This document shows, piece by piece, positions 850 through 28,961 of a stretch of DNA of 33,707 bases; within the stretch, counting starts at the first letter, position 1; every line of letters starts with the position of its first letter. A program made the position numbers and the translations under genes. The notes beneath the pieces were generated by a model. That model was not told the DNA's origin. It was given only the letters and a program-made list of their open reading frames with translations, and made no database searches. This DNA is from an uncultured Gammaproteobacteria bacterium (GTDB lineage Bacteria; Pseudomonadota; Gammaproteobacteria; Ga0077536), in assembly GCA_903866355.1 (NCBI GenBank), contig CAIPNE010000181.1:1-33707 (forward strand). The letters are read 5' to 3'.

Positions 850-2027
850 GTTGCTCGGCCCTCTACCTCAAAGTAGTGCAGGAGGAACTCCGCCAAACCA
901 AATAATTGCTCGCCACCCTCACCCGCGCTGCCCGCGAGATGCGTCAGACAGCGCACGTCACCGGCCACAACAGGCACCGTGGCCGCACCACGGCGGGTCG
1001 CGCCCATGCGCGCGGCAGCCGCGGGATGCAGGGTCGCCAGACTGCCGGCAGCACCACAGCACACGCCATGAGAAGCCGCCATCGCAGAGTTCTCAACCGT
1101 TTGCGCCAAGTGCTGCAAAATTGCCCGCGTGGGATCGACCGCAGCGCGCAGATCGCCGGGTCGGCGGGACGCACAGCTATCAAACACATGGACCACCGAG
1201 GGGCGCGTCGCGCGTGGGATGAGTTGCAAACGGGCGTCCAACAAAGCCTGCAGCAACCACTGCGGAAAGGTCAGCACGCGCTCGGCCGTCACGCCGCGCT
1301 GCCAAGCGGGCGCGCATTCCAGGCCGGAGGTCACGAGTAAGGGCGCGCGCAAACGCCCGGCCAAGGTCTGCTCAGCGTAAGCGGCGTCCTGTGGCAGGCC
1401 AGCTTCACGCAGCGGCGCGCCGCAGCAGGCGTCGTCTGCCGGTGAATAACCCACGCGCTCACCGGCCAACTGGAAAAGCCGGACGGCGGCCCGCGCTTCG
1501 GCCGGACGGGCATGTGCCGTGGCACAACCCGGGGCGTACTGCAGCGTGGCGAGCGGGCCGGCGGTGAACTCAAGCCCAGTGGCCCAAGCACTGCGTGCAG
1601 CGGCAGGCGCACCGTAGACGTTGCCCTGTTCCCGCACCCGCGTGCGTAAGGCGGCGAGTGGCGCGGGCAAATGATCTTGCGCCGCCAACATTTCGCGCAG
1701 CGCCTGACCTACCTGCGCGGGGCGCAGGCCAATCGGGCAGATGCTCTCGCAGTTGCCGCAGCCGGTGCACGAAAAAGCGCGCTCGGCCAACACCTCAAGA
1801 TTAAGCGCCTGGCCTTCCAGCAAGGCGCGGGCAGCCGCGATATAGCCGCGCCCGGAATAACTTAACGCAGGAGAGTGGTGGGTGATCGTGGCACAGACGT
1901 GCTCAATACCGCGCTCGGCCCACACCGCGTCCACGCAATAATTGCAGTCCGCGCAGTGATAGAGATCTTGGCGAAAGACTTCCAGCGCGCTGCGCTCGCC
2001 GTGCACAGCGCTATCAGGCGCGGCCAA
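846..2027 (-). CDS. GlcF-like (Fe-S)-binding oxidoreductase with cysteine-rich CCG-type domains
   Basis: 393-aa ORF. It has Cys clusters CADCNYC and CTGCGNCESICP (4Fe-4S ferredoxin-type CxxCxxCxxxCP). C-terminal Cys-rich segments (PGCATAH, DDACCGAP, FDSCASR, GVCCGAAG) fit a glycolate-oxidase GlcF / heterodisulfide-reductase-like fold. The start is ambiguous: TTG at 2027 or GTG at 2006. With the TTG start it overlaps the upstream gene by 14 bp. Confidence 0.8.
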   Translation of the reverse strand: MAAPDSAVHGERSALEVFRQDLYHCADCNYCVDAVWAERGIEHVCATITHHSPALSYSGRGYIAAARALLEGQALNLEVLAERAFSCTGCGNCESICPIGLRPAQVGQALREMLAAQDHLPAPLAALRTRVREQGNVYGAPAAARSAWATGLEFTAGPLATLQYAPGCATAHARPAEARAAVRLFQLAGERVGYSPADDACCGAPLREAGLPQDAAYAEQTLAGRLRAPLLVTSGLECAPAWQRGVTAERVLTFPQWLLQALLDARLQLIPRATRPSVVHVFDSCASRRPGDLRAAVDPTRAILQHLAQTVENSAMAASHGVCCGAAGSLATLHPAAAARMGATRRGAATVPVVAGDVRCLTHLAGSAGEGGEQLFGLAEFLLHYFEVEGRAT

Positions 2028-3456
2028 TTTTTTTCAGCCAACGCGCGACGTTGCGGCCATGCGTGGCGAGATAGGGGTCTTGGATAAATTTGTCGTAAAA
2101 CGCGGTTTCCAAGCGGTGCGCCTGCGCATAAAACCGAATGTACATCGAGGGCACGGTGCCGGGAAACTTGCCATAGGTGGCGTAAATATATTCGGCGATT
2201 TTAACCACGGCCTCCACCAGTTCCGGTTCGGGTCGAGCGGCAGTTGCTTTGATCTTGGGGTTGTCCAAAAACGGGCCAGGCGATTTGGGATCGTAGGCGC
2301 CACCTGGGCCAAACTTAAGATTAACGTAGGCCTCCACCGCGGCGCGCATGTCTTTGTGGTAGGGCGGGCAGTAGCTCTCGTAAATACCATCCAGCCCGAT
2401 GGGGTTAGGCACGCCCCACTTGGGGTCGGTTTGAAAACGGAAACCCAAGCCGGGCAAGCCTTTGGCGGCGCCAGCCCCCATCAGCGAAAAAGGACTGATC
2501 CCGGAAAAAAACCAGCCGCCCAGTCCTAGCGTCTGTAACGCCAGCACGATGTTGTGGCCCATATCGCCCATCTCTACTGCCGAGCAGGTCAGGATGTACT
2601 GCTCCATGTAAGACAGTGGATATTTTTTCTCGGGATCGAGCAGACCCTGTTTGAAAAAGGGTTCCAGATCGCCCGCCGGACGTGCGTGTTGATCGTCCCA
2701 CACGGTAAAACCCGAACCCGCCACAATGAACAAAAAGCCCATGAATTGTTCCGACACATTGGCCACCGGAATGAAAACGGTGGAGCCCGGCACGTTTGCG
2801 TTCCACGTGTTGTGGGCGCTGTAATGGGGTTCGCCGCGCGGCAATTCAATGCGTTTGTCGCTGAGCTGGCGGGTGTGTTCTTGGGCCGCGGCGATCACGC
2901 GTTCGGGTTCAGACAAGCGCTCGTGCGCCCAGTTGCCATCGGTCTTCGCATCCCGGGTGCTAACAAAATACGTGCCGCTGTCTTCGGTATAGAACAGATC
3001 CGGGCTGCCAATGCCTGCCGCCGTGGGTACGGTGCGGCCGGTATAGCGCGCAGCATAAGTGGCTAGCCCCGACTCGGCATCAGAGTAGGGGATCCCATTG
3101 TGCTGACCCGACACCCCAATTCCCGCCGCCAGCAGCATCGAGCGTTCAAAGTCATCTAGCGACGACGGCGGTTTGTCAGACTTGAACTTCAGCGGGCCAC
3201 GCGGAATTTCCATGCCCCAACCGAAGCGCCGGGAGCGCCGACCGAACAGCGCAGAGTACAAAGGAAATTCGGCCGCTTCTTTGAGCAGCGCGTTCCACTC
3301 GGACAACTGCGCCGCGCTGTACTTCGCGCTAGCAGCGCTGGGTGCGGCTTGCGCGCCGCGTACCAGTGCCGGCGCGAGCGAGGCGAGGCTCGCCAAATAG
3401 AGAAACGCACGGCGCGATAAAGACGCGGACTTGGCGGGCAGATCGTCGAGGCTCAT
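2014..3456 (-). CDS. Tat-signal protein with putative nitroreductase/SagB-like fold, function unknown
   Basis: 480-aa ORF. The N-terminus SLSRRAFLYLASLASLAPALVRGAQA-AP is a twin-arginine motif plus h-region plus AxA cleavage site. The internal segments PSSLDDFERSMLLAAGIGVSG and GHNIVLALQTLGLGGWFFSG resemble nitroreductase-superfamily signatures. That fold assignment is by eye only. Confidence 0.8.
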   Translation of the reverse strand: MSLDDLPAKSASLSRRAFLYLASLASLAPALVRGAQAAPSAASAKYSAAQLSEWNALLKEAAEFPLYSALFGRRSRRFGWGMEIPRGPLKFKSDKPPSSLDDFERSMLLAAGIGVSGQHNGIPYSDAESGLATYAARYTGRTVPTAAGIGSPDLFYTEDSGTYFVSTRDAKTDGNWAHERLSEPERVIAAAQEHTRQLSDKRIELPRGEPHYSAHNTWNANVPGSTVFIPVANVSEQFMGFLFIVAGSGFTVWDDQHARPAGDLEPFFKQGLLDPEKKYPLSYMEQYILTCSAVEMGDMGHNIVLALQTLGLGGWFFSGISPFSLMGAGAAKGLPGLGFRFQTDPKWGVPNPIGLDGIYESYCPPYHKDMRAAVEAYVNLKFGPGGAYDPKSPGPFLDNPKIKATAARPEPELVEAVVKIAEYIYATYGKFPGTVPSMYIRFYAQAHRLETAFYDKFIQDPYLATHGRNVARWLKKIGRA

Positions 3457-3500
3457 GGTGTTACTCGCTGCAGTGACTGATAGTGGGTAGATATTAAGCC

Positions 3501-3529
3501 GTTTGCCCGCGTCTCGATACGCGGCAAAC
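3501..3529. promoter_or_regulatory. Imperfect inverted repeat in a divergent promoter region (candidate operator)
   Basis: GTTTGCC(C)GCGT-ctcgat-ACGCGGCAAAC: 11-bp arms with one bulged C. It lies between the divergent starts at 3456 (-) and 3609 (+). Confidence 0.25.
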
Positions 3530-3608
3530 TAGCCCCGAACGCGCGACCCGGCACGCTCACGTCGTGCGCCTCTAACCGCATCCACCACCCGGCAAGGCAG
3601 CTTTTCCC

Positions 3609-4409
3609 ATGAGCACATTTTTTGCTGACATCGAGGCCTTCGTCGCCACCATCCCTGATGGGGCCAAGCTCGCCATACCACCGGACTATAGCGGTGTGGC
3701 CTTGGCCGCAACCCGCGCGCTGGTCCGGCGCAATATCCGCGGACTACATCTCATTGCAGTCCCGCAAGCAGGTCTACAGGCCGATGTTCTCATCGGCGCA
3801 GGTTGTGTGGCAACGCTCGAAGCCGCTGGTATCAACTTGGGGGAGTATGGCCTAGCGCCACGTTTTACCGCGGCGGTATTGGCCGGTTCCATCGTGATGC
3901 GCGACGCCACCTGCCCGGCGATACACGCGGGGCTCCAAGCCGCTGAGAAAGGCATTCCCTTCCTGCCGCTACGGGGCATTTTGGGTTCCGACCTGTTACG
4001 CGTGCGTCCCGATTGGCGGGTCATCGACAACCCGTTTGGGATCAATGATCCCATCGTGCTAATCCCCGCCATCCGCCCGGATATCGCGCTGTTTCACGCC
4101 CGTGTGGCTGACCGTCACGGCAACGTCTGGGTCGGCGTGCGGCGCGAATTAATGCTCATGGCACATGCCTCGGCAAAGACTTATGTGACCGTCGAAACAG
4201 TGCAAACAGACAATCTATTGGCGGATCCCGCGCTCGCGGCGGGCACGATCCCCGCTTTGTATATCGACGCCATCCAACACGCGCCCGGCGGCATGCGACC
4301 ACTGGGCTTTGAGGACGAAACCGCGCACTACGCCTCACTGGCCAACTACGCCAGTTTGGCCCAGACCGACGCCGGCTTTATGGACTGGCTACGCACGTGG
4401 TTGGCATGA
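3609..4409 (+). CDS. CoA-transferase-fold subunit A-like protein (GctA/IpdA-like), pair 1
   Basis: 266 aa. The motifs AAEKGIPFLPLRGILGSDL, ALFHARVADRHGNVWV and IDAIQHAPGG parallel the paralog at 10607..11491 and glutaconate-CoA-transferase/IpdA-type alpha subunits. Its TGA overlaps the ATG of the next gene. Confidence 0.85.
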   Translation: MSTFFADIEAFVATIPDGAKLAIPPDYSGVALAATRALVRRNIRGLHLIAVPQAGLQADVLIGAGCVATLEAAGINLGEYGLAPRFTAAVLAGSIVMRDATCPAIHAGLQAAEKGIPFLPLRGILGSDLLRVRPDWRVIDNPFGINDPIVLIPAIRPDIALFHARVADRHGNVWVGVRRELMLMAHASAKTYVTVETVQTDNLLADPALAAGTIPALYIDAIQHAPGGMRPLGFEDETAHYASLANYASLAQTDAGFMDWLRTWLA

Positions 4410-16881: not shown

Positions 16882-17077
16882 CACACACTCTCCGGGTTTA
16901 ATAATGTCGAATAGCTTAGGTAATTTCTCAGAATTGTCGTGGATGTTTTTGGCCGACACAACCGTTTCATCCCGCGCGGGGTGGCCAAACGCGGCCCACG
17001 CAACCACCATTCTGAGGTTCTTTGGGGTGCCCCCGTGCAAAGGGAACCCATTGACGACAACGATTTAAAACAAAACG

Positions 17078-17698
17078 CTAACGCTTCTCACAGGCAAAAG
17101 TGGTAAAGCACCAATCACTGTCAATGACGTGTATTTTTGCAAAACCAATCGTTTTAAACGCATCTAAATAATATTGAACATCATTGATGAACATGATGTT
17201 AGCCACGCTGGCCTGCTTTTGCTTTATCTCTTCCTCTGACACGCCGCGCGCTCGTTTGTAGTCGTGGTAGAAATTAATGGCCAGCGGATCAAGTGAAGTC
17301 TTCTCACTAATGACGGCAATGCCACCCGGCGCGAGGTTATCAAAGATAGACTGCAAATAAGTTGCTTTATCTCTGATGAAATGGAGAGTCCAGTTAATCA
17401 ACACCACATTGTAGGGACCGGCCGGCAGTTGGTCGCTACAGGTTAGCGTGGCGATGTTGGGCGGGCACTTATCGAGCATAACCTGGCTGTTATCCACCCC
17501 GTGCAAATTAACAAAGCCATTTTCATGCAGGCGAATCAGGGTTTCGCCAACCGCGCAACCGACATCAATTATTTTCGCCGACTCACCATACAGTTTGCAT
17601 ATCTCAACTGATTTTTTGATCACGTTTTCATAGTTTGGAATATGCTGCCTTGCATGCGCTGCAAATGTCTTTGCAACGTTTTCGTCGAACTCCCACAT
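17078..17698 (-). CDS. CmoA-family class I SAM-dependent methyltransferase-fold protein (orphan, low GC)
   Basis: The ORF is 17078..17725. The start MWEFDENVAKTF at 17698 is preceded by GGAGAG 7 nt upstream. A by-eye alignment to E. coli CmoA as I remember it gives these matches: WEFDENVAKTF..IPNYENVI, IIDVGCAVGE, VDNSQVMLDKC, VLINWTLHFI, LAPGGIAVISEK, YHDYKRARGVSEEEIKQKQASVANIM. Two hand-counted 60-nt lines gave about 37% GC, against about 62% in the adjacent ABC gene. Confidence 0.85.
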   Translation of the reverse strand: MWEFDENVAKTFAAHARQHIPNYENVIKKSVEICKLYGESAKIIDVGCAVGETLIRLHENGFVNLHGVDNSQVMLDKCPPNIATLTCSDQLPAGPYNVVLINWTLHFIRDKATYLQSIFDNLAPGGIAVISEKTSLDPLAINFYHDYKRARGVSEEEIKQKQASVANIMFINDVQYYLDAFKTIGFAKIHVIDSDWCFTTFACEKR

Positions 17699-17759
17699 AG
17701 TCTTCTCTCCACTTATTGACAGCAACGGTAGACGGAAACCTAGTCGCTGATAAAACCCT

Positions 17760-17773
17760 TGTGATATGTCACA
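17760..17773. promoter_or_regulatory. Short palindrome TGTGA-tatg-TCACA upstream of the methyltransferase gene
   Basis: The 5-bp arms are separated by 4 nt. The site lies 62-75 nt upstream of the 17698 start on the minus strand. Confidence 0.2.
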
Positions 17774-17803
17774 GGCACTCGGGTGAAATTTTCAAGCCAT
17801 CTC

Positions 17804-19699
17804 TCAACGTTGAAATTGCAGCGCGGCAAGTTTGGCATACAGACCACCCGCGGCCTGCAGCTCAAGATGGGTCCCTAATTCTACTAACTGTCCGAAATCC
17901 AGCACGGCAATGCGATCCGCTTTTTGCACCGTGGCCAAGCGATGGGCAATGATGAGCGTGGTGTGATTTTGCATGAGTTCGCCCAGAGCCTGTTGGACTA
18001 GGCGTTCGGATTCTGCGTCCAGCGCGCTCGTCGCCTCATCCAACAATAAGAGGGGACGCTGTGCCAGTACCGCCCGCGCAATGGCCAAGCGCTGGCGCTG
18101 GCCACCCGACAGTTGCACACCGCGTTCACCCAACGGTGTGGCGAGCCCCTGCGGTAAGCGCTCGATAAATTCCCACGCGTAAGCCGCATGGCAGGCGGCC
18201 GCCACGTCGGCGTCGCTCGCGGCTGGGCGGCCATAACGCACGTTGTCGGCGACGCTGGCGGCGAAAATGACGGGATCCTGCGACACCAACGCCATAGCTC
18301 CCCGCAAATCCGCGAGGCTGAGTGTCCGGCTATCCACGCCATCCAAACGAATCAGGCCGGCCTGAGGGTCGTAATAGCGCAACAGCAATTGGAAAAGGGT
18401 CGTTTTGCCGGCACCCGACGGCCCGACAAGGGCGACCTGCTCGCCCGGTGCCACTTGGAGTGTGAAGTCGCGCAGGGCCAAAGTCTCCGGACGTGAGGGG
18501 TAAGCAAAAGTGAGCTGCTCAAAACTGAGCGCGCCGCGGGCGGGCCGCGCTAGGGGGGTGGGTTTAGCGGGCGCCGTGACTTCTGGCTCGGTCTTCAATA
18601 ACTCTAGCAGGCGCTCGGCCGCACCCGCCGCGCGCTGCAAGTCCCCCATGACTTCGGCGAGCGCACCAACCGCCCCAGCCACAATCACCGCATAAAACAC
18701 AAAGGCCGAGAGCGCTCCGGGCGACAAACGTCCGGCCACCACATCGTTGCCGCCTACCCACAAAATGACCCCGATCGCACCAAATGCCAGCAAAATAACC
18801 GAGGCCACCATCGTTGCGCGCACGAGGATGCGCCGCTCAGCAGTCTGGAACTGGGCTTCTACGCGCGCACCGAACGCGGCGCGGTCCACTGGCTCGTGGA
18901 CATAGGCCTGGACGGTACGGATTTCATGCAGGGTCTCATCGATGAAGGCGGCCACGTCCGCCAGACGGTCTTGGCTGGCCCGTGACAGACGGCGCAAGCG
19001 ACGACCGGCCAGCATGATAGGAAAAAAGACCAGCGGCACACCGAATAACACCAGCAGGGTGAGCTTGGCCGACGTGATCGCAAGCATCACCAAGGCACCC
19101 AACATCAGCAAAAGATTGCGCACGGCAAAAGAGGCTGAGGAACCAATAACGACCTCTAGCAGACTGACATCGTTGGTCAGACGGGAGGTCACTTCGCCGG
19201 TGCGAGTCACCTCAAAAAAGGCGGGCGACAAGCGCAGGATGTGGTCGAACAATGCACGGCGAATGTCCGCTGTTACGCGTTCACCTAACCAAGTGACCCA
19301 ATAAAAGCGGGCAAAGGTTGCCCCGGCCATCACCACGATAACCGCCAACAAACCGACCAAAGCCTCGTTGAGCAAGCTGGGTTCACCGGCCAAGATGCCG
19401 CCGTCGATGACCCGCTTTACGCCTTGACCAATCGCCAGCACGCTGCCGGCGGCGACCAGCAGCGCCAGCGCAGCCCCCACCGCGCAGCGCCAATAGGGGC
19501 GCACAAAGCGCCACAGGACTGAGATTTGGCGCAAGTCGCGTGAAATGGGGCGTGCGGCGGAGGCGTTCGAAGTGGCGACGAAAAATTCCTTGGGAACAGA
19601 AAACCAGCGCAGCATAACCGGGGCTTCATCCCCGTACAGGGCTTGTATAGTATCGGGCGTGCGCAGGCGCGCCACTGGCCCTGCGATCAAACCAACCAA
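17804..19699 (-). CDS. ABCB-type exporter (fused transmembrane and ATPase domains, MsbA-like)
   Basis: 631-aa maximal ORF. It has Walker A GPSGAGKTT, the signature LSGGQRQR and Walker B LLLLDEATSALD, plus six N-terminal hydrophobic helices. The true start may be the internal ATG at 19615 (MLRWFSV). The maximal ORF would leave only 23 bp to the divergent gene. Confidence 0.9.
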   Translation of the reverse strand: MVGLIAGPVARLRTPDTIQALYGDEAPVMLRWFSVPKEFFVATSNASAARPISRDLRQISVLWRFVRPYWRCAVGAALALLVAAGSVLAIGQGVKRVIDGGILAGEPSLLNEALVGLLAVIVVMAGATFARFYWVTWLGERVTADIRRALFDHILRLSPAFFEVTRTGEVTSRLTNDVSLLEVVIGSSASFAVRNLLLMLGALVMLAITSAKLTLLVLFGVPLVFFPIMLAGRRLRRLSRASQDRLADVAAFIDETLHEIRTVQAYVHEPVDRAAFGARVEAQFQTAERRILVRATMVASVILLAFGAIGVILWVGGNDVVAGRLSPGALSAFVFYAVIVAGAVGALAEVMGDLQRAAGAAERLLELLKTEPEVTAPAKPTPLARPARGALSFEQLTFAYPSRPETLALRDFTLQVAPGEQVALVGPSGAGKTTLFQLLLRYYDPQAGLIRLDGVDSRTLSLADLRGAMALVSQDPVIFAASVADNVRYGRPAASDADVAAACHAAYAWEFIERLPQGLATPLGERGVQLSGGQRQRLAIARAVLAQRPLLLLDEATSALDAESERLVQQALGELMQNHTTLIIAHRLATVQKADRIAVLDFGQLVELGTHLELQAAGGLYAKLAALQFQR

Positions 19700-22696: not shown

Positions 22697-22739
22697 ACGG
22701 TCCAGCCCAAGCTTAAAATTTGGGTGAGGAGTTTTCTAA

Positions 22740-22774
22740 CGAGGTACCTGCAACCCGGGTACCTCGTTTTTTTT
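22740..22774 (+). terminator. Rho-independent terminator
   Basis: CGAGGTACC-tgcaacccg-GGTACCTCG forms a perfect 9-bp stem and is followed by TTTTTTTT. It lies 44 nt after the stop at 22696. Confidence 0.75.
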
Positions 22775-22863: not shown

Positions 22864-23463
22864 TCAGGTGGTCACGCCGAAAGCACGCCGTTGCGCCTGA
22901 AAAGTCTCGACATCGCAGGCCATGATCAGCAGGTCGTGGTATTCGCCTGCGCGGTCCTTCACTTCGTCTTTCAATAAAGCTTCGGGTTGGAAGCCTAGCT
23001 CCTGAAAAAGTCCGCGCGCACCGCGCTGATCGGTGGTCATGCGCGCCACCACTTTTTCGATTCCTAACGCGAGTGCCATATTGAAGGCTTCGCGGGTCAG
23101 CAGCCGCCCAAGACCCACGCCCCGCGCCCGATCGGCAGTCGCCACGCGCAGGTCAGCGACGTGGCCAGACCAATCGAGTTCGGTGAGATGGAGCGAGGAA
23201 TACCCGGCAATCCCATGCGCGTCCTCGCATAAAATGCTGTACATGGCACCACGCCGCACAGCGTCTAACCAGCGACCAATACCAGCCGGTTTGGTGATAT
23301 CTCTGCGCATAAACAGCAGGTCGTGCGGCGGCAATTCGAGAGCAAAGGCTTGCAGAGCCTCACCATCGTCGAGCGTCATCGCTCGCACCGTAAACGACTT
23401 GCCCTGCAGTTTGATCTGCAAGGGGTAATGCTTCCATGCCTCGGCGACGCGGGCTTGCGACAT
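22864..23463 (-). CDS. GNAT-family N-acetyltransferase
   Basis: The ORF is 22864..23493. The start MSQARVAEAW at 23463 is preceded by AGGAGA 8 nt upstream. The acetyl-CoA motif RARGVGLGRLL is present. Confidence 0.8.
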   Translation of the reverse strand: MSQARVAEAWKHYPLQIKLQGKSFTVRAMTLDDGEALQAFALELPPHDLLFMRRDITKPAGIGRWLDAVRRGAMYSILCEDAHGIAGYSSLHLTELDWSGHVADLRVATADRARGVGLGRLLTREAFNMALALGIEKVVARMTTDQRGARGLFQELGFQPEALLKDEVKDRAGEYHDLLIMACDVETFQAQRRAFGVTT

Positions 23464-23518
23464 GAGCGAGTTCTCCTGTGAGTGTGGCTGCAAAAATTAA
23501 GGTGGGTGACGGGCGCCG

Positions 23519-24634
23519 CTAGACCGAGCGCGTGCTCAGCCAACGGTCGAGTTGTGGCCAGAGTCGGTAAACCGCGTTACCGCCGGCTACCAAACTCACA
23601 TGCCCACCCTTGATGATGATCTCCTGCTTGTCTTTGCTACCGACAAGTCCAATGAGATCGCGTGACGCTGCCGTTGGTACGATGTGGTCGTACTCTGCGG
23701 CAACGTGGAGAAACGGCACGCGGATTTTACCGATATCAATCGCTTTGTCACCCACGTGAAAATTGCCGTGGATGATCTGGTTGCCACGGAGAAAATCGCG
23801 GACAAATTCCTGGGTGAACAGGCCGGGCAGCGGCAATTGATCGGCGGCCCAGCGGTCGAAACGTAGATTAGCCTTCACAAAGGCATCGTTACCGACGTTG
23901 TTGAGGAGTTGCAACTGATTCGCTCTGCGTTGTAATGGCCGCAGCGCTTGAATCGACGCGTTGATCATTTCACCCGGAATGACGCCCAACTCAGTAACTA
24001 AACGATCAACATCAAAGGCCTTACTGGTGACCCACTGTTTGTAGAGCGTCATGCCGTCCGCATTCACCGGGGTGGTAAAGCAGACCAGATTTTTCAGGCC
24101 GCTACGAGGATAAAGCGCGGCGTGCAGGCAGGCCAATAAGCCCCCCAAGCAATAGCCGATGACCGTGAGGTCGGACTCACCGCAGTCGGCGGCAACGCGT
24201 GCCATGGCGTCGTTGATCATCTCGCACACGAAGGCTTCGATACCCAACGCCGCATGCTCGCGGCGCGGCGCGACCCAATCGATCATGTAGACGTCGTAGC
24301 CCTGCAGGACCAAGTATTCGACAAAACTCTGCCCCGCGGCCAAGTCTAAAATGTAGCCCTTGGACACCGGCGACATAATGATCAACACCGGCACTCGATA
24401 AATTTCAGCCAACATTGGCTGGTAGCGGTACAGGCGCAGGGTGTCACGCGCATACACCAATTCTTTAGGTGTTTGCCCCACCTCAATATCCAGTTCCTGC
24501 GCGGGCAAGCGCAGTCCGGGAATGTTGCGGGACAGCGTGCGTTCTACCGCTCGCTGTACCTGGCGGTCGATTTCCGCTTGCGGAATGACCGGCTCAGCGG
24601 GTGGTTGCGAGGCCGGTTTGCGTCGGCTTGCCAT
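23519..24634 (-). CDS. phaC: Class III/IV-type poly(3-hydroxyalkanoate) synthase catalytic subunit PhaC
   Basis: 371 aa, which is the short PhaC class. It has the lipase-box with Cys VIGYCLGG, the Asp in AAEYDHIVP and the His in KGGHVSLVAGG. The segments YRYQP...VPVLIIMSPV...YDVYMIDW are collinear with Allochromatium-type PhaC as I recall it. The start lies 2 nt after the stop of the upstream gene. Confidence 0.9.
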   Translation of the reverse strand: MASRRKPASQPPAEPVIPQAEIDRQVQRAVERTLSRNIPGLRLPAQELDIEVGQTPKELVYARDTLRLYRYQPMLAEIYRVPVLIIMSPVSKGYILDLAAGQSFVEYLVLQGYDVYMIDWVAPRREHAALGIEAFVCEMINDAMARVAADCGESDLTVIGYCLGGLLACLHAALYPRSGLKNLVCFTTPVNADGMTLYKQWVTSKAFDVDRLVTELGVIPGEMINASIQALRPLQRRANQLQLLNNVGNDAFVKANLRFDRWAADQLPLPGLFTQEFVRDFLRGNQIIHGNFHVGDKAIDIGKIRVPFLHVAAEYDHIVPTAASRDLIGLVGSKDKQEIIIKGGHVSLVAGGNAVYRLWPQLDRWLSTRSV

Positions 24635-24636
24635 GG

Positions 24637-25023
24637 TTAGAGTTGCTCCGGCGGACGCCTAGTACGGGCTGGACGTTGCGCACCGCTGGCCACCGGCGTG
24701 ACGTTTACGCCTTGGGCGAGACGGGTGCGGACTTCGCGCAGTTCAACCTGCACGGCGGCGAGCGCATCTTCCACCTGCCCCATGCGGTCGCCAAGGTCGA
24801 GAATGTCTTGGCGCGAAGGCAAGTTGAGATTGGCTAAGTATTGCGCCATCGATTCACTGAACATCCGGTGCGTGTGCAGCGCCTCCTGCATGTAGCGCCC
24901 CATACCTTTGGAGAAACGCTCGTCACCCATGATATCGGTGAGCGACTGACTCCACGCTTTCTCAGATTTCACGAACCATTCCCGCCATAAACGCACGGGG
25001 TTGAGTTGGTCATCGTCTGTCAT
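24637..25023 (-). CDS. Short PHA synthase partner subunit, PhaR(class IV)/PhaE-like
   Basis: The ORF is 24637..25074. The start MTDDDQLNP at 25023 is preceded by AAGGAG 7 nt upstream. WREWFVKSEKAWSQSLTDIMGDERFSKGMGRYMQ...YLANLNLPSRQDILDLGDRMGQVEDAL resembles Bacillus PhaR and the PhaE C-terminal region, by eye. It sits immediately upstream of phaC. Confidence 0.65.
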   Translation of the reverse strand: MTDDDQLNPVRLWREWFVKSEKAWSQSLTDIMGDERFSKGMGRYMQEALHTHRMFSESMAQYLANLNLPSRQDILDLGDRMGQVEDALAAVQVELREVRTRLAQGVNVTPVASGAQRPARTRRPPEQL

Positions 25024-25885
25024 GTGCATGCTCCTTGGAATGTGCCTGCCGACCACTTGGCGCGGTTCCATCACCGGTCAATGGTTGGGCCAGGCGGTGG
25101 GCGATCGCGCGATAAACTTCCGGGTGAAAAATCATACCGACATGGGTGCAGTGCACCTCGGTGTTGTGAGTGGGATCATCTTCGATACAGCTGGACCAGT
25201 CGGCCACGCCATCGCTACGGGAGTACACCGCAAACTGCGCCACGGCGCGCGGTTGTGGGTCCAGCAAATTCCTGACGAAGGGACACAGGCAATGCCCCGT
25301 CCCACACGAGGCGCGCAGGTTGCGCCCCACCACGCCGCTCTGCGCCCGTTTGAGTTGGTCCCACAAGCCAACCACGACCGGGTGCGCCCTGACGAAGGAA
25401 CGAAAAGGGGACCCCAACGTGATGACGCGGTCGACCAGATGGGGGTGGTCTTGCACCAAGCTCTTGGCCAACATGCCGCCCAAGCTGTGTCCCACCAAGC
25501 GCACCCGCATCCCGCATTCTTCGCTGATGCGCTGGGCCCGCAGTGCCAAAGCCCGCGCCGTCAGATCGGGGCAATCATTGTTCCAAACGATGTTCGACAG
25601 GTAAGAGCGATAACCGAGGCGCTTTAACCAGCGATGCAGCTCCAACATCAGAAAGTCGCCCGCCATAAAGCCCGGAATGAGCATCACGGGTTCGCGTTGG
25701 CCACGCTGTAAACCCGCACCGCTATACACCGAGGAGAACCGGAGCTTAAACCAATCCCCCGCCCACGCAGCTTCCCGCCAGAGGGGCGTGAGCGTGGCCT
25801 GCACCGAGGGGTCGTGTGCAAAAGGGTCGTTGAATGCAGCGCTGACGCTGCATTCTTCGCTCGCCTTCGGTTCATTAGAGTCCAT
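25010..25885 (-). CDS. Alpha/beta hydrolase with lipase box (PGAP1/lipase-like)
   Basis: 291 aa. It has the nucleophile elbow VGHSLGG, ITLGSPFRS, a candidate Asp in YSRSDGVADW and a candidate His in CTHVGMIFHPE. A Cys/His-rich insert reads SCGTGHCLCPF. The stop overlaps the PhaR-like start by 14 bp. Confidence 0.8.
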   Translation of the reverse strand: MDSNEPKASEECSVSAAFNDPFAHDPSVQATLTPLWREAAWAGDWFKLRFSSVYSGAGLQRGQREPVMLIPGFMAGDFLMLELHRWLKRLGYRSYLSNIVWNNDCPDLTARALALRAQRISEECGMRVRLVGHSLGGMLAKSLVQDHPHLVDRVITLGSPFRSFVRAHPVVVGLWDQLKRAQSGVVGRNLRASCGTGHCLCPFVRNLLDPQPRAVAQFAVYSRSDGVADWSSCIEDDPTHNTEVHCTHVGMIFHPEVYRAIAHRLAQPLTGDGTAPSGRQAHSKEHAHDRR

Positions 25886-25965
25886 CGCGTCTCACTAGAG
25901 AGTCTGCTGGAAACCACCTGTTGCGCCACCGTGAAGGGCTCGCCGGAGGTTCCAACAGCGTCGGT

Positions 25966-26400
25966 TTAGGCGGTTTTGGCGAACCAACCAGCGAACGGCC
26001 GAATGTTGGTGCCGAAGCCCGTCGCCCCCACCGTGCCGGCCCAAATTTCCTGTGCTTCGGCGCCGGCTTGTACCTGCTCTTCATACACGAGCTTGCCGAA
26101 TTTTAGCGCGCGTTCCTGAGCGGCTGTCGCCGCGTCCATCACCAACTTCGCCGCCGCGCTGAAATCAGCGGGATGTTCCAACACTTGACGGCTAATGCCG
26201 AGCATATCGCGTTGACCGGCGATGAGCGCATCACTGAGTTCTGCAGACACGCGCTGGGCACGAGCCCGGCTGCCTTTGAGGCTGCTGGTAAACGTCTCGT
26301 GGTGATTGGTCAAGGTGTCGAGGTACTCCGCAAAGGCATTGGCAACCGGGTTAGTGGTGTCTTTGGCAGCTTTGTGACGGGCATTCTGGGTGGTGGTCAT
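25966..26400 (-). CDS. Phasin-like, alanine-rich, probably helical protein (assignment by context)
   Basis: 144 aa with AGGAGA 5 nt upstream of the ATG. The composition is Ala/Gln/Glu-rich and looks helix-prone by eye, with no enzymatic motif. It lies at the head of the phaC operon, divergent from a PadR regulator. Confidence 0.45.
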   Translation of the reverse strand: MTTTQNARHKAAKDTTNPVANAFAEYLDTLTNHHETFTSSLKGSRARAQRVSAELSDALIAGQRDMLGISRQVLEHPADFSAAAKLVMDAATAAQERALKFGKLVYEEQVQAGAEAQEIWAGTVGATGFGTNIRPFAGWFAKTA

Positions 26401-26483
26401 GGACTTCTCCTAGGCTCGATTGAGTTAGATACTGACATAATATGTTGCAGTGCACACTAGCGCTTTTATCTATATGCGTTTTG

Positions 26484-26493
26484 CACCTAGGTG
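26484..26493. promoter_or_regulatory. Perfect 10-bp palindrome CACCTAGGTG in the phasin/padR divergent promoter region (candidate operator)
   Basis: Read directly from the sequence. A second near-palindrome, ACAT-aat-ATGT, lies at 26435..26445. Confidence 0.2.
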
Positions 26494-26555
26494 TCAACGC
26501 GTGACGCAAAAATAAACAGACCCCACCGCACGGGTCACGAATTGAGGAATGAGAG

Positions 26556-26945
26556 ATGCTGAGCATAGAACCACCGTCAGGGCTGCGCCCGAGCGGCGAC
26601 ATGCTGACCGCCCACTTGCTGGCGCTACTAAAAGGCTGGACCGCTTACGGCTACGACCTCGTGCAGCGACTCGACGCCGCCGGCTTCGGTGACTACAACA
26701 AAGGCTCGGTCTACCGCGCGCTGCGGCAAATGGAGGCTCTGGGCTTGGTCTCATCCCATTGGGACACGGCCTCCGAAGGCCCCGCGCGGCGCATGTACAC
26801 CGTCACGCCCTATGGCCTCACTTTCTTGCAGAGCTGGCTGGCGATTTTCGACGCGCAACGCAAAGCTTTAGAAGGCCTACTCAATGCCGTCCCCATTACC
26901 CCCATTACCCCGCGCTCACCGGCGCGCCGCCCGCGCCAACCCTGA
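26556..26945 (+). CDS. PadR-family transcriptional regulator (possible PhaQ analogue)
   Basis: 129 aa. The winged-helix pattern LLALLKGWTAYGYDLVQRLDAAGFGDYNKGSVYRALRQMEALGLVSSHWD...ARRMYTVTPYG is typical of PadR. GAGGAA lies upstream of ATG 26556. An alternative ATG is at 26601. Confidence 0.85.
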   Translation: MLSIEPPSGLRPSGDMLTAHLLALLKGWTAYGYDLVQRLDAAGFGDYNKGSVYRALRQMEALGLVSSHWDTASEGPARRMYTVTPYGLTFLQSWLAIFDAQRKALEGLLNAVPITPITPRSPARRPRQP

Positions 26946-27282: not shown

Positions 27283-28194
27283 ATGACCATCGCATTGGGC
27301 CTAAGCGTAGTTGTCTTGTGGATAGTCGCGTGGCAGTTCTGGCCGCGGCCTTTTTATCTCGCGGCCATGACGCTGCTGCGCCGCGCCGCCGGCCTGCGCA
27401 CCCAACGCATGCAGGTGGGGGATCAGGAAATCGTTTATCTGGAGGGCGGCACGGGAGAAACCTTGGTGTTGCTCCATGGCTTTGGCGCGGACCGTGACGC
27501 GTGGCCGCCAATGGTCGCCCAACTCAAGGGACGTTACCGGGTGATAGCGCCCGACTTACCCGGCTTCGGCGACAGCAGCCGGGTGCCTGCGGCGAGCTAC
27601 ACGCTGGATGCCCAGTTAGCGCGCTTAGCAGATTTTTTAAAGACTTTAGGCATCCAAAAATTTCATCTCGCGGGAAATTCCATGGGGGGCTATCTGGCCG
27701 CGCACTACGCCGTGCGCCATCCGGAACAAATCCAGAGCCTCTCGTTGCTCGCGCCAGCCGGCGTTGCCAGCGCCCAAGAAAGCGAACTTCAACAACTTTT
27801 GGCGCAAGGTGATAATCCGCTGCTGATCAAAACCCTCGCCAATTTTTCTCGTTTAATGAACCTCTGCTTTGTTAAAACGCCCTATACCCCTGGCGCTATA
27901 CGGCGCGTCCTTGCAGCACGTGCGATCCGTGACTGCGATTTTCACCGTCAAATATTTGCAGATTTATTTGGCTCGGCCGTGCCGCTGGAAGAAGTCGTCA
28001 GCACCTTCCACGGGCCGACGCTCATCCTCTGGGGCGACCACGACCGACTTTTGGATGTCTCGGGCGCCGCCATCTTGCGCACCCTGATGCCGCACAGCCA
28101 ATTGTGCGTGCTGCCCGATGTCGGGCATGTGCCGATGCTCGAAGTACCCCGAGCCACCGCACTAGCATTTCTGGCGTTTCAATCTGGCGTCTGA
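27283..28194 (+). CDS. Alpha/beta hydrolase with N-terminal hydrophobic anchor
   Basis: 303 aa. It has LLHGFGADRDAW, the nucleophile elbow GNSMGG and the C-terminal His in DVGHVPMLE. The N-terminus MTIALGLSVVVLWIVAWQFW is hydrophobic. Confidence 0.85.
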   Translation: MTIALGLSVVVLWIVAWQFWPRPFYLAAMTLLRRAAGLRTQRMQVGDQEIVYLEGGTGETLVLLHGFGADRDAWPPMVAQLKGRYRVIAPDLPGFGDSSRVPAASYTLDAQLARLADFLKTLGIQKFHLAGNSMGGYLAAHYAVRHPEQIQSLSLLAPAGVASAQESELQQLLAQGDNPLLIKTLANFSRLMNLCFVKTPYTPGAIRRVLAARAIRDCDFHRQIFADLFGSAVPLEEVVSTFHGPTLILWGDHDRLLDVSGAAILRTLMPHSQLCVLPDVGHVPMLEVPRATALAFLAFQSGV

Positions 28195-28907
28195 TCCATC
28201 GCGGCGAGACGCTCCGAGACCAAGCGACCCACTGCACGTAGTTGACCCGAAATAGCGGCCTGCGCTGCCTGCGCATCACCTGACACCATGGCCCGCCGAA
28301 TAGCGAGGTGAGCTTGGCGAACGTGCTGGCCGAAGTACAAGGATCCGAACGCCACCTTGATAAAAAAATCACTGCGGTCCCACATACCTGCCGCCACCGC
28401 ACACGCCAGCGGCGCGCGTGCCAGTTCGTGAATCATCGTGTGAAATTCCAAATTTGCGCGCCGATACTGCGGATCCCGCGCCGCCGGCGGCCCGGCGGTT
28501 TTTAGTTCGAGGTCTATGCGCCGACACAGCGTCTTAAAAGCCGGCAAATCGGCGGTCGTGCGTCGCGCTGCTGCCAAGCCCGTGACACACCCTTCCACCG
28601 CAGCAAACAGCTCAAAAAAATCCTGTACCTCTGCCGCATTCGGGCGCGCCACCCGGCAACCCACTTGCGGCGTAATTTCTACAAAGCCTTCCATGTCGAG
28701 GCGCTTGAGCGCCTCCATAACTGGCACGCGACTGCATTGGAGTTGGGCAGAAATATCCATCACCGAAAGCCAGTCACCGGGTTTTAGATCGCCCTCCAGC
28801 AGTTGCTGCATGAGGTGGGTATAGGCGCCCTGCGCCAGCGGCGCGGTGCCGGCAGTGAGGCGCCGCGAGGGGCGTACGGTGAAGCGAGTAGCAGTCGCGG
28901 CAGACAT
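28179..28907 (-). CDS. GntR-family (FadR/FCD-type) transcriptional regulator
   Basis: The ORF is 28179..28958. The start MSAATATRF at 28907 is preceded by GAGGAA 6 nt upstream. The wHTH is LKPGDWLSVMDISAQLQCSRVPVMEALKRLDMEGFVEI, followed by a helical C-terminal FCD-like domain. Confidence 0.85.
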   Translation of the reverse strand: MSAATATRFTVRPSRRLTAGTAPLAQGAYTHLMQQLLEGDLKPGDWLSVMDISAQLQCSRVPVMEALKRLDMEGFVEITPQVGCRVARPNAAEVQDFFELFAAVEGCVTGLAAARRTTADLPAFKTLCRRIDLELKTAGPPAARDPQYRRANLEFHTMIHELARAPLACAVAAGMWDRSDFFIKVAFGSLYFGQHVRQAHLAIRRAMVSGDAQAAQAAISGQLRAVGRLVSERLAAMDQTPD

Positions 28908-28945
28908 GGGTCGTTCCTCAGCTTGCGGCCTGCGGGGGCTAAGAT

Positions 28946-28961
28946 TTAGTCTACACACTAA
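28946..28961. promoter_or_regulatory. Palindrome TTAGT-ctacac-ACTAA in the GntR/LLM divergent promoter (candidate GntR operator)
   Basis: The 5-bp arms lie between the divergent starts at 28907 (-) and 29009 (+). The GT...AC core is compatible with FadR-subfamily operators. Confidence 0.25.

Follow-up and report, generated by a model that had tools for sequence, protein, structure and literature searches.

A 33.7-kb stretch of DNA from an uncultured freshwater gammaproteobacterium (contig CAIPNE010000181.1, positions 1 to 33,707; hereafter the window) carries a cluster of six genes that probably encodes a two-subunit polyhydroxyalkanoate (PHA) synthase of the class III/IV type under the control of a PhaQ-type repressor. 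Five of the genes, for a phasin-like protein, a lipase-like hydrolase, a small synthase subunit, the synthase PhaC and a GNAT-family acetyltransferase, are transcribed in this order from the minus strand, and a gene for a PadR-family regulator diverges from them (Table 1). A first-pass annotation of the same DNA had proposed a Bacillus-style, class IV-like synthase module here, and this proposal was borne out by a PhaQ-like PadR protein, a conserved predicted operator, a small subunit with a PhaR domain and a PhaC clade that is sister to class IV. The locus resembles a class IV PhaRC system with PhaQ control but falls below all curated class III/IV cutoffs, and phaB and PhaP_Bmeg are both missing from it. 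All six open reading frames (ORFs) were confirmed at the positions first given, and scans of the whole window for Rfam families and tRNA genes were negative.

The best model for PhaC is the class III/IV model TIGR01836 (E = 1.6e-83, 280.6 bits). The protein carries the G-x-C-x-G-G lipase box, Asp and His by which a PHA synthase is recognized in sequence; the box reads GYCLGG, and the Cys-Asp-His triad that had been noticed in this short-class enzyme is intact as Cys162-Asp316-His345, with His317 directly after Asp316. We aligned 43 PhaC sequences, including those of Priestia (Bacillus) megaterium (class IV), Rhizobium (class III, with PhaE), Haloferax mediterranei (class III) and Paracoccus (class I). 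Across this set, which spans classes I, III and IV as well as the relatives of the window enzyme, GYCLGG, Cys162 and Asp316 never vary and His345 is missing from a single sequence of the 43; the solved structures among the relatives are class I catalytic domains only. In a neighbor-joining tree with 100 bootstraps, the window PhaC belongs to a clade of enzymes linked to a GNAT gene, which was monophyletic in 97/100 replicates (78/100 with Rhodococcus opacus included). The PhaCs of Bacillaceae and Rubrobacteraceae grouped together in 100/100 replicates, and the GNAT-linked clade was sister to this class IV group in 74/100, with class III outside. PhaC is thus provisionally placed in a distinct clade nearest class IV, and not within ordinary class III, a placement on which the original proposal had been made to depend. 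When TIGR01836 was calibrated on the same enzymes, class IV PhaCs scored 398-534 bits, class III PhaCs 388-404 bits and the GNAT-linked clade 281-331 bits.

The small protein encoded 2 nucleotides upstream of PhaC had been picked out for PhaR/PhaE-like motifs. It matched the Bacillus PhaR model TIGR02132 (E = 2.5e-9, 37.4 bits) over model positions 1-91 of 189, and the PhaE model TIGR01834 (E = 3.4e-4, 20.2 bits, below the cutoff of 154.95) over positions 229-321 of 324 only, while PF09712 (PhaE, cutoff 25.7 bits) gave no match to it at E ≤ 0.01. BLASTP aligned residues 7-78 with P. megaterium PhaR at 26% identity, including an NLPSRQD/NVPTKED motif. The small proteins of the clade matched the PhaR model at E-values of 1e-5 to 7e-18, always in its N-terminal half, and matched PhaE over the C-terminal ~90 residues; P. 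megaterium PhaR matched this same PhaE segment. The 128-residue protein is therefore best described as a minimal copy of a domain common to the PhaR N terminus and the PhaE C terminus, to which a short basic, proline-rich tail is added in place of the long PhaR tail. With an iterated profile, the ORF that precedes PhaC could be linked to it in 60 of 62 clade loci, as well as in the fetched class IV-type loci of Bacillaceae and Rubrobacteraceae. In the Rubrobacteraceae loci (L058-L063), the PhaR-like ORF before PhaC is much longer (~350 residues as called), and its C terminus matches lipoyl/E2-linker-like low-complexity segments.

These results bear on whether the locus is an ordinary class III PhaE-PhaC system that scores low on old TIGRFAM models and whose neighbors are unrelated passengers, which we consider quite unlikely. 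The class III systems of Allochromatium, cyanobacteria, rhizobia and haloarchaea also have a short-type PhaC that is recognized by the same hidden Markov model, with a small partner encoded directly upstream, and the conserved core of the window subunit equals the C-terminal ~90 residues of PhaE. The class III/IV model is the best PhaC model, RefSeq names the small protein of Novosphingobium aromaticivorans 'PhaE', IMG labels the proteins 'polyhydroxyalkanoate synthase' (PhaC) and 'PHB-responsive repressor' (PadR; PHB, polyhydroxybutyrate), and large surveys lump such sequences into class III (PMC8312272). The clade nevertheless forms a monophyletic group that excludes the class III PhaCs of Rhizobium and haloarchaea, and these do pass the model cutoff. 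For the small protein, PhaR is a better match than PhaE, of which just the last ~90 positions are covered, whereas PhaE in the fetched class III examples is longer and passes or approaches its own model. PhaE need not reach the roughly 300-370 residues that had been taken as its normal length, with 201 residues in Rhizobium and 184 in haloarchaea; that of Allochromatium is longer. Linkage to GNAT extends throughout the clade and was seen in none of the class III and IV loci that we examined, the Rhizobium and haloarchaeal loci have no PhaQ-type repressor and no lipase-like gene, and the operator described below would tie the PadR protein functionally to the operon.

The regulator is a PadR-family protein (Pfam PF03551, 62.3 bits, cutoff 27) and is PhaQ-like in sequence: its best NCBIfam model is TIGR02719 (repress_PhaQ; E = 2e-23, 83.2 bits), the next PadR model scores 35 bits, and it is 39% identical to P. 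megaterium PhaQ over 95 residues. P. megaterium PhaQ itself matches Pfam PadR at 69.7 bits, which confirms the initial statement that PhaQ belongs to this family. The comparison with profile models that had been suggested at the outset was thus positive for both proteins, the small subunit matching PhaR/PhaE and the regulator matching PhaQ significantly, though in every case below the curated cutoff.

In 14 Bacillaceae class IV loci, we found a 19-bp near-palindrome, TAGGTGTAAATTACAYNTA, in the phaQ promoter downstream of TTGACA. A weight matrix was built solely from these Bacillaceae sites and used to scan both strands of the window. It returned a single strong match, TAGGTGCAAAACGCATATA, with a score of 19.2 bits against 9.0 bits for the runner-up; the maximum score in 200 shuffled windows averaged 10.9 bits (SD 2.4) and never rose above 18.4 bits. 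The match lies whole within the 155-nucleotide spacer between the PadR and phasin-like genes, where it fills the spacer of a predicted sigma-70 promoter of the operon and overlaps its -10 element. This promoter was missed by a consensus promoter scan because its -10 element is TATAGA. In 12 orthologous spacers the promoter/operator block hardly varies, and TTGACA and GCATATA do not vary at all. The top match of the matrix (13-25 bits) fell in the equivalent spacer of every PadR-bearing locus fetched, 13 of them gammaproteobacterial and 5 from Dehalococcoidia, and equally strong top matches were obtained in four Rubrobacteraceae loci. Clade loci without PadR gave nothing comparable in the matrix scan, with the sole exception of a Vulcanimicrobiota locus (L035). 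This locus has two strong matches, at 1520-1538 and 3659-3677 (23.4 and 25.4 bits), one of them directly upstream of a 138-residue helical ORF (3176-3592, minus strand) that has no Pfam match, and no PadR gene was present in the 13 kb fetched. A further conserved block of the spacer, AGTGTGCACTGCAACATAT, comes shortly after the operon -10 element; its pattern T.TGCA..GCA.CA is invariant in 12 loci and is not scored by the operator matrix. Possible roles are an element of the 5' untranslated region and another operator with a spacing of its own.

PadR proteins form a large family with many functions, and seven gammaproteobacterial loci (L012-L018) keep the operon without the regulator, so we considered whether the window PadR controls something else, for example a phenolic-acid stress response, and stands beside the operon by chance. 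This is highly improbable, given the gap between the PhaQ model and the next PadR model and given an operator match that occurs nowhere but in the shared intergenic region and, in three phyla, goes together with the presence or absence of PadR.

The gene junctions indicate that the five genes would form one translationally coupled operon. The ATG of the small-subunit gene follows AAGGAG by 7 nucleotides, the first 14 nucleotides of this gene are shared with the end of the hydrolase gene, and the 2-nucleotide gap noted above lies between its TAA stop and the PhaC ATG. In our favored interpretation, this five-gene operon would be governed by the divergent PhaQ-type PadR repressor. In PMC10665291, which cites Lee et al., 2004, phaQ and phaP are given as the targets of B. 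megaterium PhaQ, a repressor that responds to PHB. The predicted operator lies between the -35 and -10 elements, and a bound dimer would occlude RNA polymerase. The repressor would be titrated off the operon promoter by nascent polymer, as reported for B. megaterium PhaQ, and its release would allow the phasin-like coat protein and the synthase to be made once polymer starts forming. PhaC and the small subunit would together constitute an active polymerase on (R)-3-hydroxyacyl-CoA. The monomers would have to be supplied from elsewhere in the genome because neither phaA, phaB nor phaJ is found in the window. We would guess that the cytoplasmic lipase-like esterase mobilizes or trims the polyester, and that the GNAT uses acyl-CoA to modify a granule protein or the polymer end.

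The initial description of an alanine-rich, phasin-like gene that heads the operon and diverges from PadR is accurate as far as position and composition are concerned (28 of the 144 residues, or 19%, are Ala); its assignment as a phasin depends on context and on a weak transitive link. The protein has no Pfam or NCBIfam match, including Phasin_2 (PF09361) and other phasin families, and profile-profile comparison (hhalign) with Bacillaceae PhaP gave a probability of 1.8%, so that kinship with Bacillus PhaP was rejected. Its AlphaFold model consists of two long helices (pLDDT 56). The eight close homologs are all unnamed and carry no Pfam domain. A profile search of 1.8 billion representatives yielded 111 small helical relatives; when 91 remote relatives were scanned, seven matched Phasin_2 (best E = 4.1e-6) and no other family was matched more than twice, which suggests a possible distant relationship to Phasin_2. 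A search of the PDB with the same profile returned designed helical bundles only. In every fetched PadR-bearing locus, in two phyla, the gene is divergent from PadR with the operator between them. Because of this PadR/operator-flanked position and the transitive Phasin_2 link, a phasin is our best guess for the 144-residue protein, held with moderate confidence.

The hydrolase has a GHSLGG nucleophile elbow (G-x-S-x-G) and a Ser-Asp-His triad, as is characteristic of lipase-like alpha/beta hydrolases. Its matches are generic lipase and alpha/beta families only (Abhydrolase_1 and PGAP1, marginally over their cutoffs), and it belongs to a large family with 2786 homologs. Ser134, Asp225 and His248 are invariant in 22 homologs, as are Cys105, 194, 199, 201 and 233, with C194-x4-C199-x-C201 inside a family-specific insertion. 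The structural model (pTM 0.71) is closest to family I bacterial lipases and the minimal lipase LipA of Bacillus subtilis (target-normalized TM-score 0.74), and inspection by eye found no signal-peptide-like hydrophobic stretch at the N terminus. A known PHA depolymerase was considered and rejected: NF050089, TIGR02240 and the Pfam esterase/PHB families did not match, and the top 50 Foldseek matches in the PDB were lipases, carboxylesterases and other alpha/beta hydrolases, with no PHA depolymerase among them. The gene had been thought to occupy the phaB slot, but it lies upstream of the small-subunit gene and not between that gene and PhaC.

The GNAT protein (PF00583, 32 bits, cutoff 20.7) is ~199 residues long from its likely true start. 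The CoA-binding motif RxxGxG (R124-x-x-G127-x-G129) is at least 97% conserved in 54 sequences, which also share the clade-specific motifs LPxxDLLFxxRD and WSxHV, and the nearest solved relatives, with weak E-values, are small-molecule N-acetyltransferases. The gene had been regarded as an appendage to the operon. It is instead the most constant partner of this PhaC clade, with a homolog 0-112 nucleotides after PhaC in 53 of roughly 60 loci in many phyla. Six loci from Rokubacteria, Myxococcota and Acidobacteriota (L023, L025-L028, L031) have a second, paralogous GNAT on the strand opposite to the core genes, 37-46% identical to that of the window; in the Myxococcota loci L025, L028 and L031 it lies immediately upstream, so that the core is flanked by two GNAT genes. 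Why the GNAT and the hydrolase are conserved next to this PhaC clade is the chief puzzle of the system.

To follow the distribution of the cluster, we scanned one genome per species, which gave 80 loci, and applied tblastn and iterated profiles to these loci. The window PhaC is 98% identical to that of a freshwater metagenome-assembled genome (MAG) that is mislabeled Klebsiella, and its nearest named relatives are in Pseudohongiellaceae MAGs at ~60% identity. MAGs with closely similar loci are labeled Gammaproteobacteria or, at ~60% PhaC identity, Pseudohongiellaceae; four freshwater MAGs with the locus (L001, L005, L013 and L017) were deposited as 'Klebsiella pneumoniae', names that look like submission errors. 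The layout recurs in 22 gammaproteobacterial loci, counting L012-L018. These seven retain the phasin-like, hydrolase, small-subunit, PhaC and GNAT genes and have lost PadR as well as the operator; they also carry (at ~2100-4100) a gene for a 576-residue hydrolase-like protein, CocE/NonD-like by eye only, between the flanking alpha/beta hydrolase gene and the operon. The same gene adjoins PadR in L003 and is absent from the window. Five Dehalococcoidia loci have all six genes in a rearranged order, with the hydrolase and phasin-like genes on the minus strand followed by PadR, small subunit, PhaC and GNAT on the plus strand. A three-gene core (small subunit, PhaC, GNAT) was also found in Rokubacteria, Myxococcota, Acidobacteriota, Alphaproteobacteria, Burkholderiales and Vulcanimicrobiota, in a Corynebacterium isolate and in R. 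opacus. Several of the Burkholderiales and alphaproteobacterial loci have unrelated, macrolide-esterase-like alpha/beta hydrolases upstream of the small subunit. The early suggestion of an undescribed architecture thus stands, with the qualification that the arrangement is not unique to this genome and recurs in ~60 loci of many phyla. Of 62 clade loci, 60 have the small subunit, 40 a hydrolase gene no more than 6 kb from PhaC, 29 the phasin-like gene and 19 PadR.

Several observations weigh against a PhaQ-regulated storage synthase. All three diagnostic proteins score below their curated cutoffs: PhaC with TIGR01836 (280.6 versus 365.3 bits), the small protein with TIGR02132 (37.4 versus 148.4 bits) and the PadR protein with TIGR02719 (83.2 versus 139.35 bits, though this is its best model by 48 bits). 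The phasin-like protein matches no phasin family directly and is not related to Bacillus PhaP, and its structural model is of low confidence. The window contains no monomer-supply genes, that is, no thiolase, acetoacetyl-CoA reductase or enoyl-CoA hydratase. The PhaC placement is provisional because the tree is distance-based and was built without the Allochromatium and cyanobacterial class III references, and the sister relationship to class IV has just 74% support. In the searchable literature, no activity is reported for any PhaC, small subunit, GNAT or hydrolase of these families. PadR and the phasin-like gene are each present in fewer than half of the clade loci, and some copies lie among catabolic acyl-CoA genes; for these reasons the core cassette may not always serve storage.

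An alternative is that the small subunit, PhaC-like protein, GNAT and hydrolase form a cassette that does not store PHA and instead makes or remodels another acyl or hydroxyacyl product, for instance an acylated protein, an oligoester or a small molecule with an N-acyl group. Acyl-CoA pools would then feed both the PhaC-like Cys enzyme and the GNAT, and a few lineages would have acquired the PhaQ-like and phasin-like genes afterwards. Such a role would fit the much more regular association of PhaC with the GNAT and the hydrolase than with PadR and the phasin-like gene, the scores of the clade below the PhaC cutoff and the richness of the window in CoA-transferase, acyl-CoA ligase, P450 and monooxygenase genes, and a copy on the N. 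aromaticivorans plasmid pNL2 lies amid acyl-CoA dehydrogenase, thiolase and dioxygenase genes, beside a LuxR regulator. We nonetheless regard this alternative as unlikely. The PHA synthase triad and lipase box are all retained, a PhaR/PhaE-type subunit is kept in nearly every clade locus, the tree places genuine class IV synthases nearest to the clade, and two phyla far from each other have the cassette connected to a repressor and operator of the PhaQ type, PhaQ being responsive to PHB in Bacillus.

A bolder extension of the PHA synthase interpretation, possible but doubtful in our view, is that the cassette of small subunit, PhaC, GNAT and, in many loci, hydrolase represents a fifth, phylogenetically widespread class of polyester synthase systems in which the GNAT is an obligatory partner and the PhaQ/operator circuit is an ancient shared module. 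The GNAT might prime or cap chains, or acylate the synthase or the coat protein, and the product or its control could be unlike classical PHB storage; the PhaQ/operator module would be common to Bacillota, Actinomycetota (Rubrobacteraceae), Chloroflexota and Gammaproteobacteria. Our searches of the open literature, whose coverage is incomplete, found no description of the clade, of a PhaC-GNAT pairing, of a fifth synthase class or of PhaQ-type regulation outside Bacillota.

Among described systems, the closest is the class IV locus of P. megaterium, whose annotated order, phaP-phaQ / phaR-phbB-phaC, agrees with the first-pass annotation. Both loci encode a PhaC of ~360-370 residues with a Cys-Asp-His triad, a small subunit with the PhaR N-terminal domain and a PadR-family, PhaQ-like repressor. 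Both also have a 19-bp operator of the form TA(G/T)(G/A)TG(C/T)AA-N-TT(G/A)CA(C/T)NTA in a TTGACA promoter, and a small helical gene as the regulated target, these two features being predicted in the window. The two loci differ in that the window PhaC is just 33% identical to that of P. megaterium and below the family cutoff, and in that P. megaterium PhaR has 199 residues with a long C-terminal coiled-coil tail, which the window subunit lacks. In P. megaterium, phaB lies between phaR and phaC and PhaP_Bmeg is encoded beside phaQ, whereas the window has no reductase gene and its phasin-like gene is unrelated to PhaP_Bmeg. The P. megaterium regulator is co-transcribed with the phasin gene, while that of the window diverges from the whole operon. 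The lipase-like hydrolase and the GNAT are additions with respect to class IV, and the hosts are Gram-negative bacteria and other non-Bacillota phyla.

The nearest example in a cultured, genetically tractable strain is on plasmid pNL2 of N. aromaticivorans DSM 12444 (SARO_RS18625-18640), which has the same four-gene core with identities to the window of 33% for the small subunit, 46% for PhaC, 43% for the GNAT and 35% for the lipase-like hydrolase. The four genes are annotated as 'PhaE' (121 residues), 'alpha/beta fold hydrolase', 'GNAT family N-acetyltransferase' and 'alpha/beta fold hydrolase'. The locus differs from the window in having no PadR or phasin-like gene, in its upstream LuxR-type regulator and in the position of the hydrolase gene, downstream on the opposite strand; its surroundings include aromatic as well as acyl-CoA catabolic genes. 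No published function for this locus was found in the open literature.

Four classes of PHA synthases are recognized, of which class IV, with PhaR and PhaQ, has been treated as a Bacillus specialty, to the extent that phaR is used as a Bacillus marker (PMC9705695). Here, what appears to be the same logic of a PhaR-domain subunit, a PhaQ-type repressor and an operator is found in uncultured freshwater Gammaproteobacteria and in Dehalococcoidia, and the PhaC branch concerned is widespread and mis-annotated, being labeled just 'alpha/beta fold hydrolase' by the NCBI pipeline. Existing labels on identical or near-identical PhaCs are either this one or 'polyhydroxyalkanoate synthase' (IMG); the small protein is a 'hypothetical protein', the hydrolase a 'triacylglycerol lipase' and the regulator a 'PHB-responsive repressor' (IMG) or 'PadR family'. 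If the synthase is active, the catalog of short-type synthases for bioplastic engineering would be enlarged, and genome surveys probably under-count or misclassify PHA potential. Neither a GNAT nor a lipase-like esterase has a known role in PHA biology, and an active synthase would raise the concrete question of what an acetyltransferase does for a polyester synthase. The system is directly testable in cultured carriers, namely N. aromaticivorans DSM 12444, Xenophilus azovorans DSM 13620 and R. opacus DSM 44188.

Table 1. Features of the PHA synthase cluster and of its surroundings in the window
Feature	Position	Strand	Remarks
GNAT	22864-23493 (ORF)	-	likely true start ATG 23463 behind AGGAGA ribosome-binding site
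PhaC	23519-24634	-	371 aa
Small subunit	24637-25023	-	128 aa, PhaR/PhaE domain
Hydrolase	25010-25885	-	291 aa, GHSLGG motif
Phasin-like protein	25966-26400	-	144 aa, alanine-rich, helical, putative phasin
Second conserved intergenic block, AGTGTGCACTGCAACATAT	26440-26458	-	just downstream of operon -10
Predicted sigma-70 promoter of phasin-like operon	26469-26497	-	-35 TTGACA 26497-26492, 17-nt spacer, -10 TATAGA 26474-26469
Predicted PhaQ-type operator, TAGGTGCAAAACGCATATA	26471-26489	-	19-bp imperfect palindrome, weight-matrix match
PadR	26556-26945	+	129 aa, PhaQ-like, divergent from operon
Terminator-like hairpin	22738-22768	+	13-bp stem then T run, consensus match only
Alpha/beta hydrolase	27283-28194	+	303 aa
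GntR-family regulator	28179-28958	-	
ORF next to 4Fe-4S dicluster protein gene	2014-3456	-	480 aa
Low-G+C stretch	17001-18000		G+C 0.48

The terminator-like hairpin lies between the 3' ends of the GNAT gene and a convergent luciferase-like monooxygenase gene. The rest of the window encodes CoA-transferases, an acyl-CoA ligase, a P450, luciferase-like monooxygenases, an HpaB-like oxygenase and several alpha/beta hydrolases. The 303-residue alpha/beta hydrolase beyond PadR was considered as a depolymerase and rejected, its match to the intracellular short-chain model being partial and N-terminal (83.8 bits, cutoff 300) and its other matches generic. It and the GntR-family regulator gene accompany the cluster in conserved synteny in most gammaproteobacterial loci that were fetched. 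The 480-residue ORF adjoining the 4Fe-4S dicluster protein gene has no Pfam or NCBIfam match. One stretch, which spans a methyltransferase gene and the end of an ABC-transporter gene, stands out by its low G+C content relative to ~0.60 elsewhere in the window and may be recently acquired DNA.

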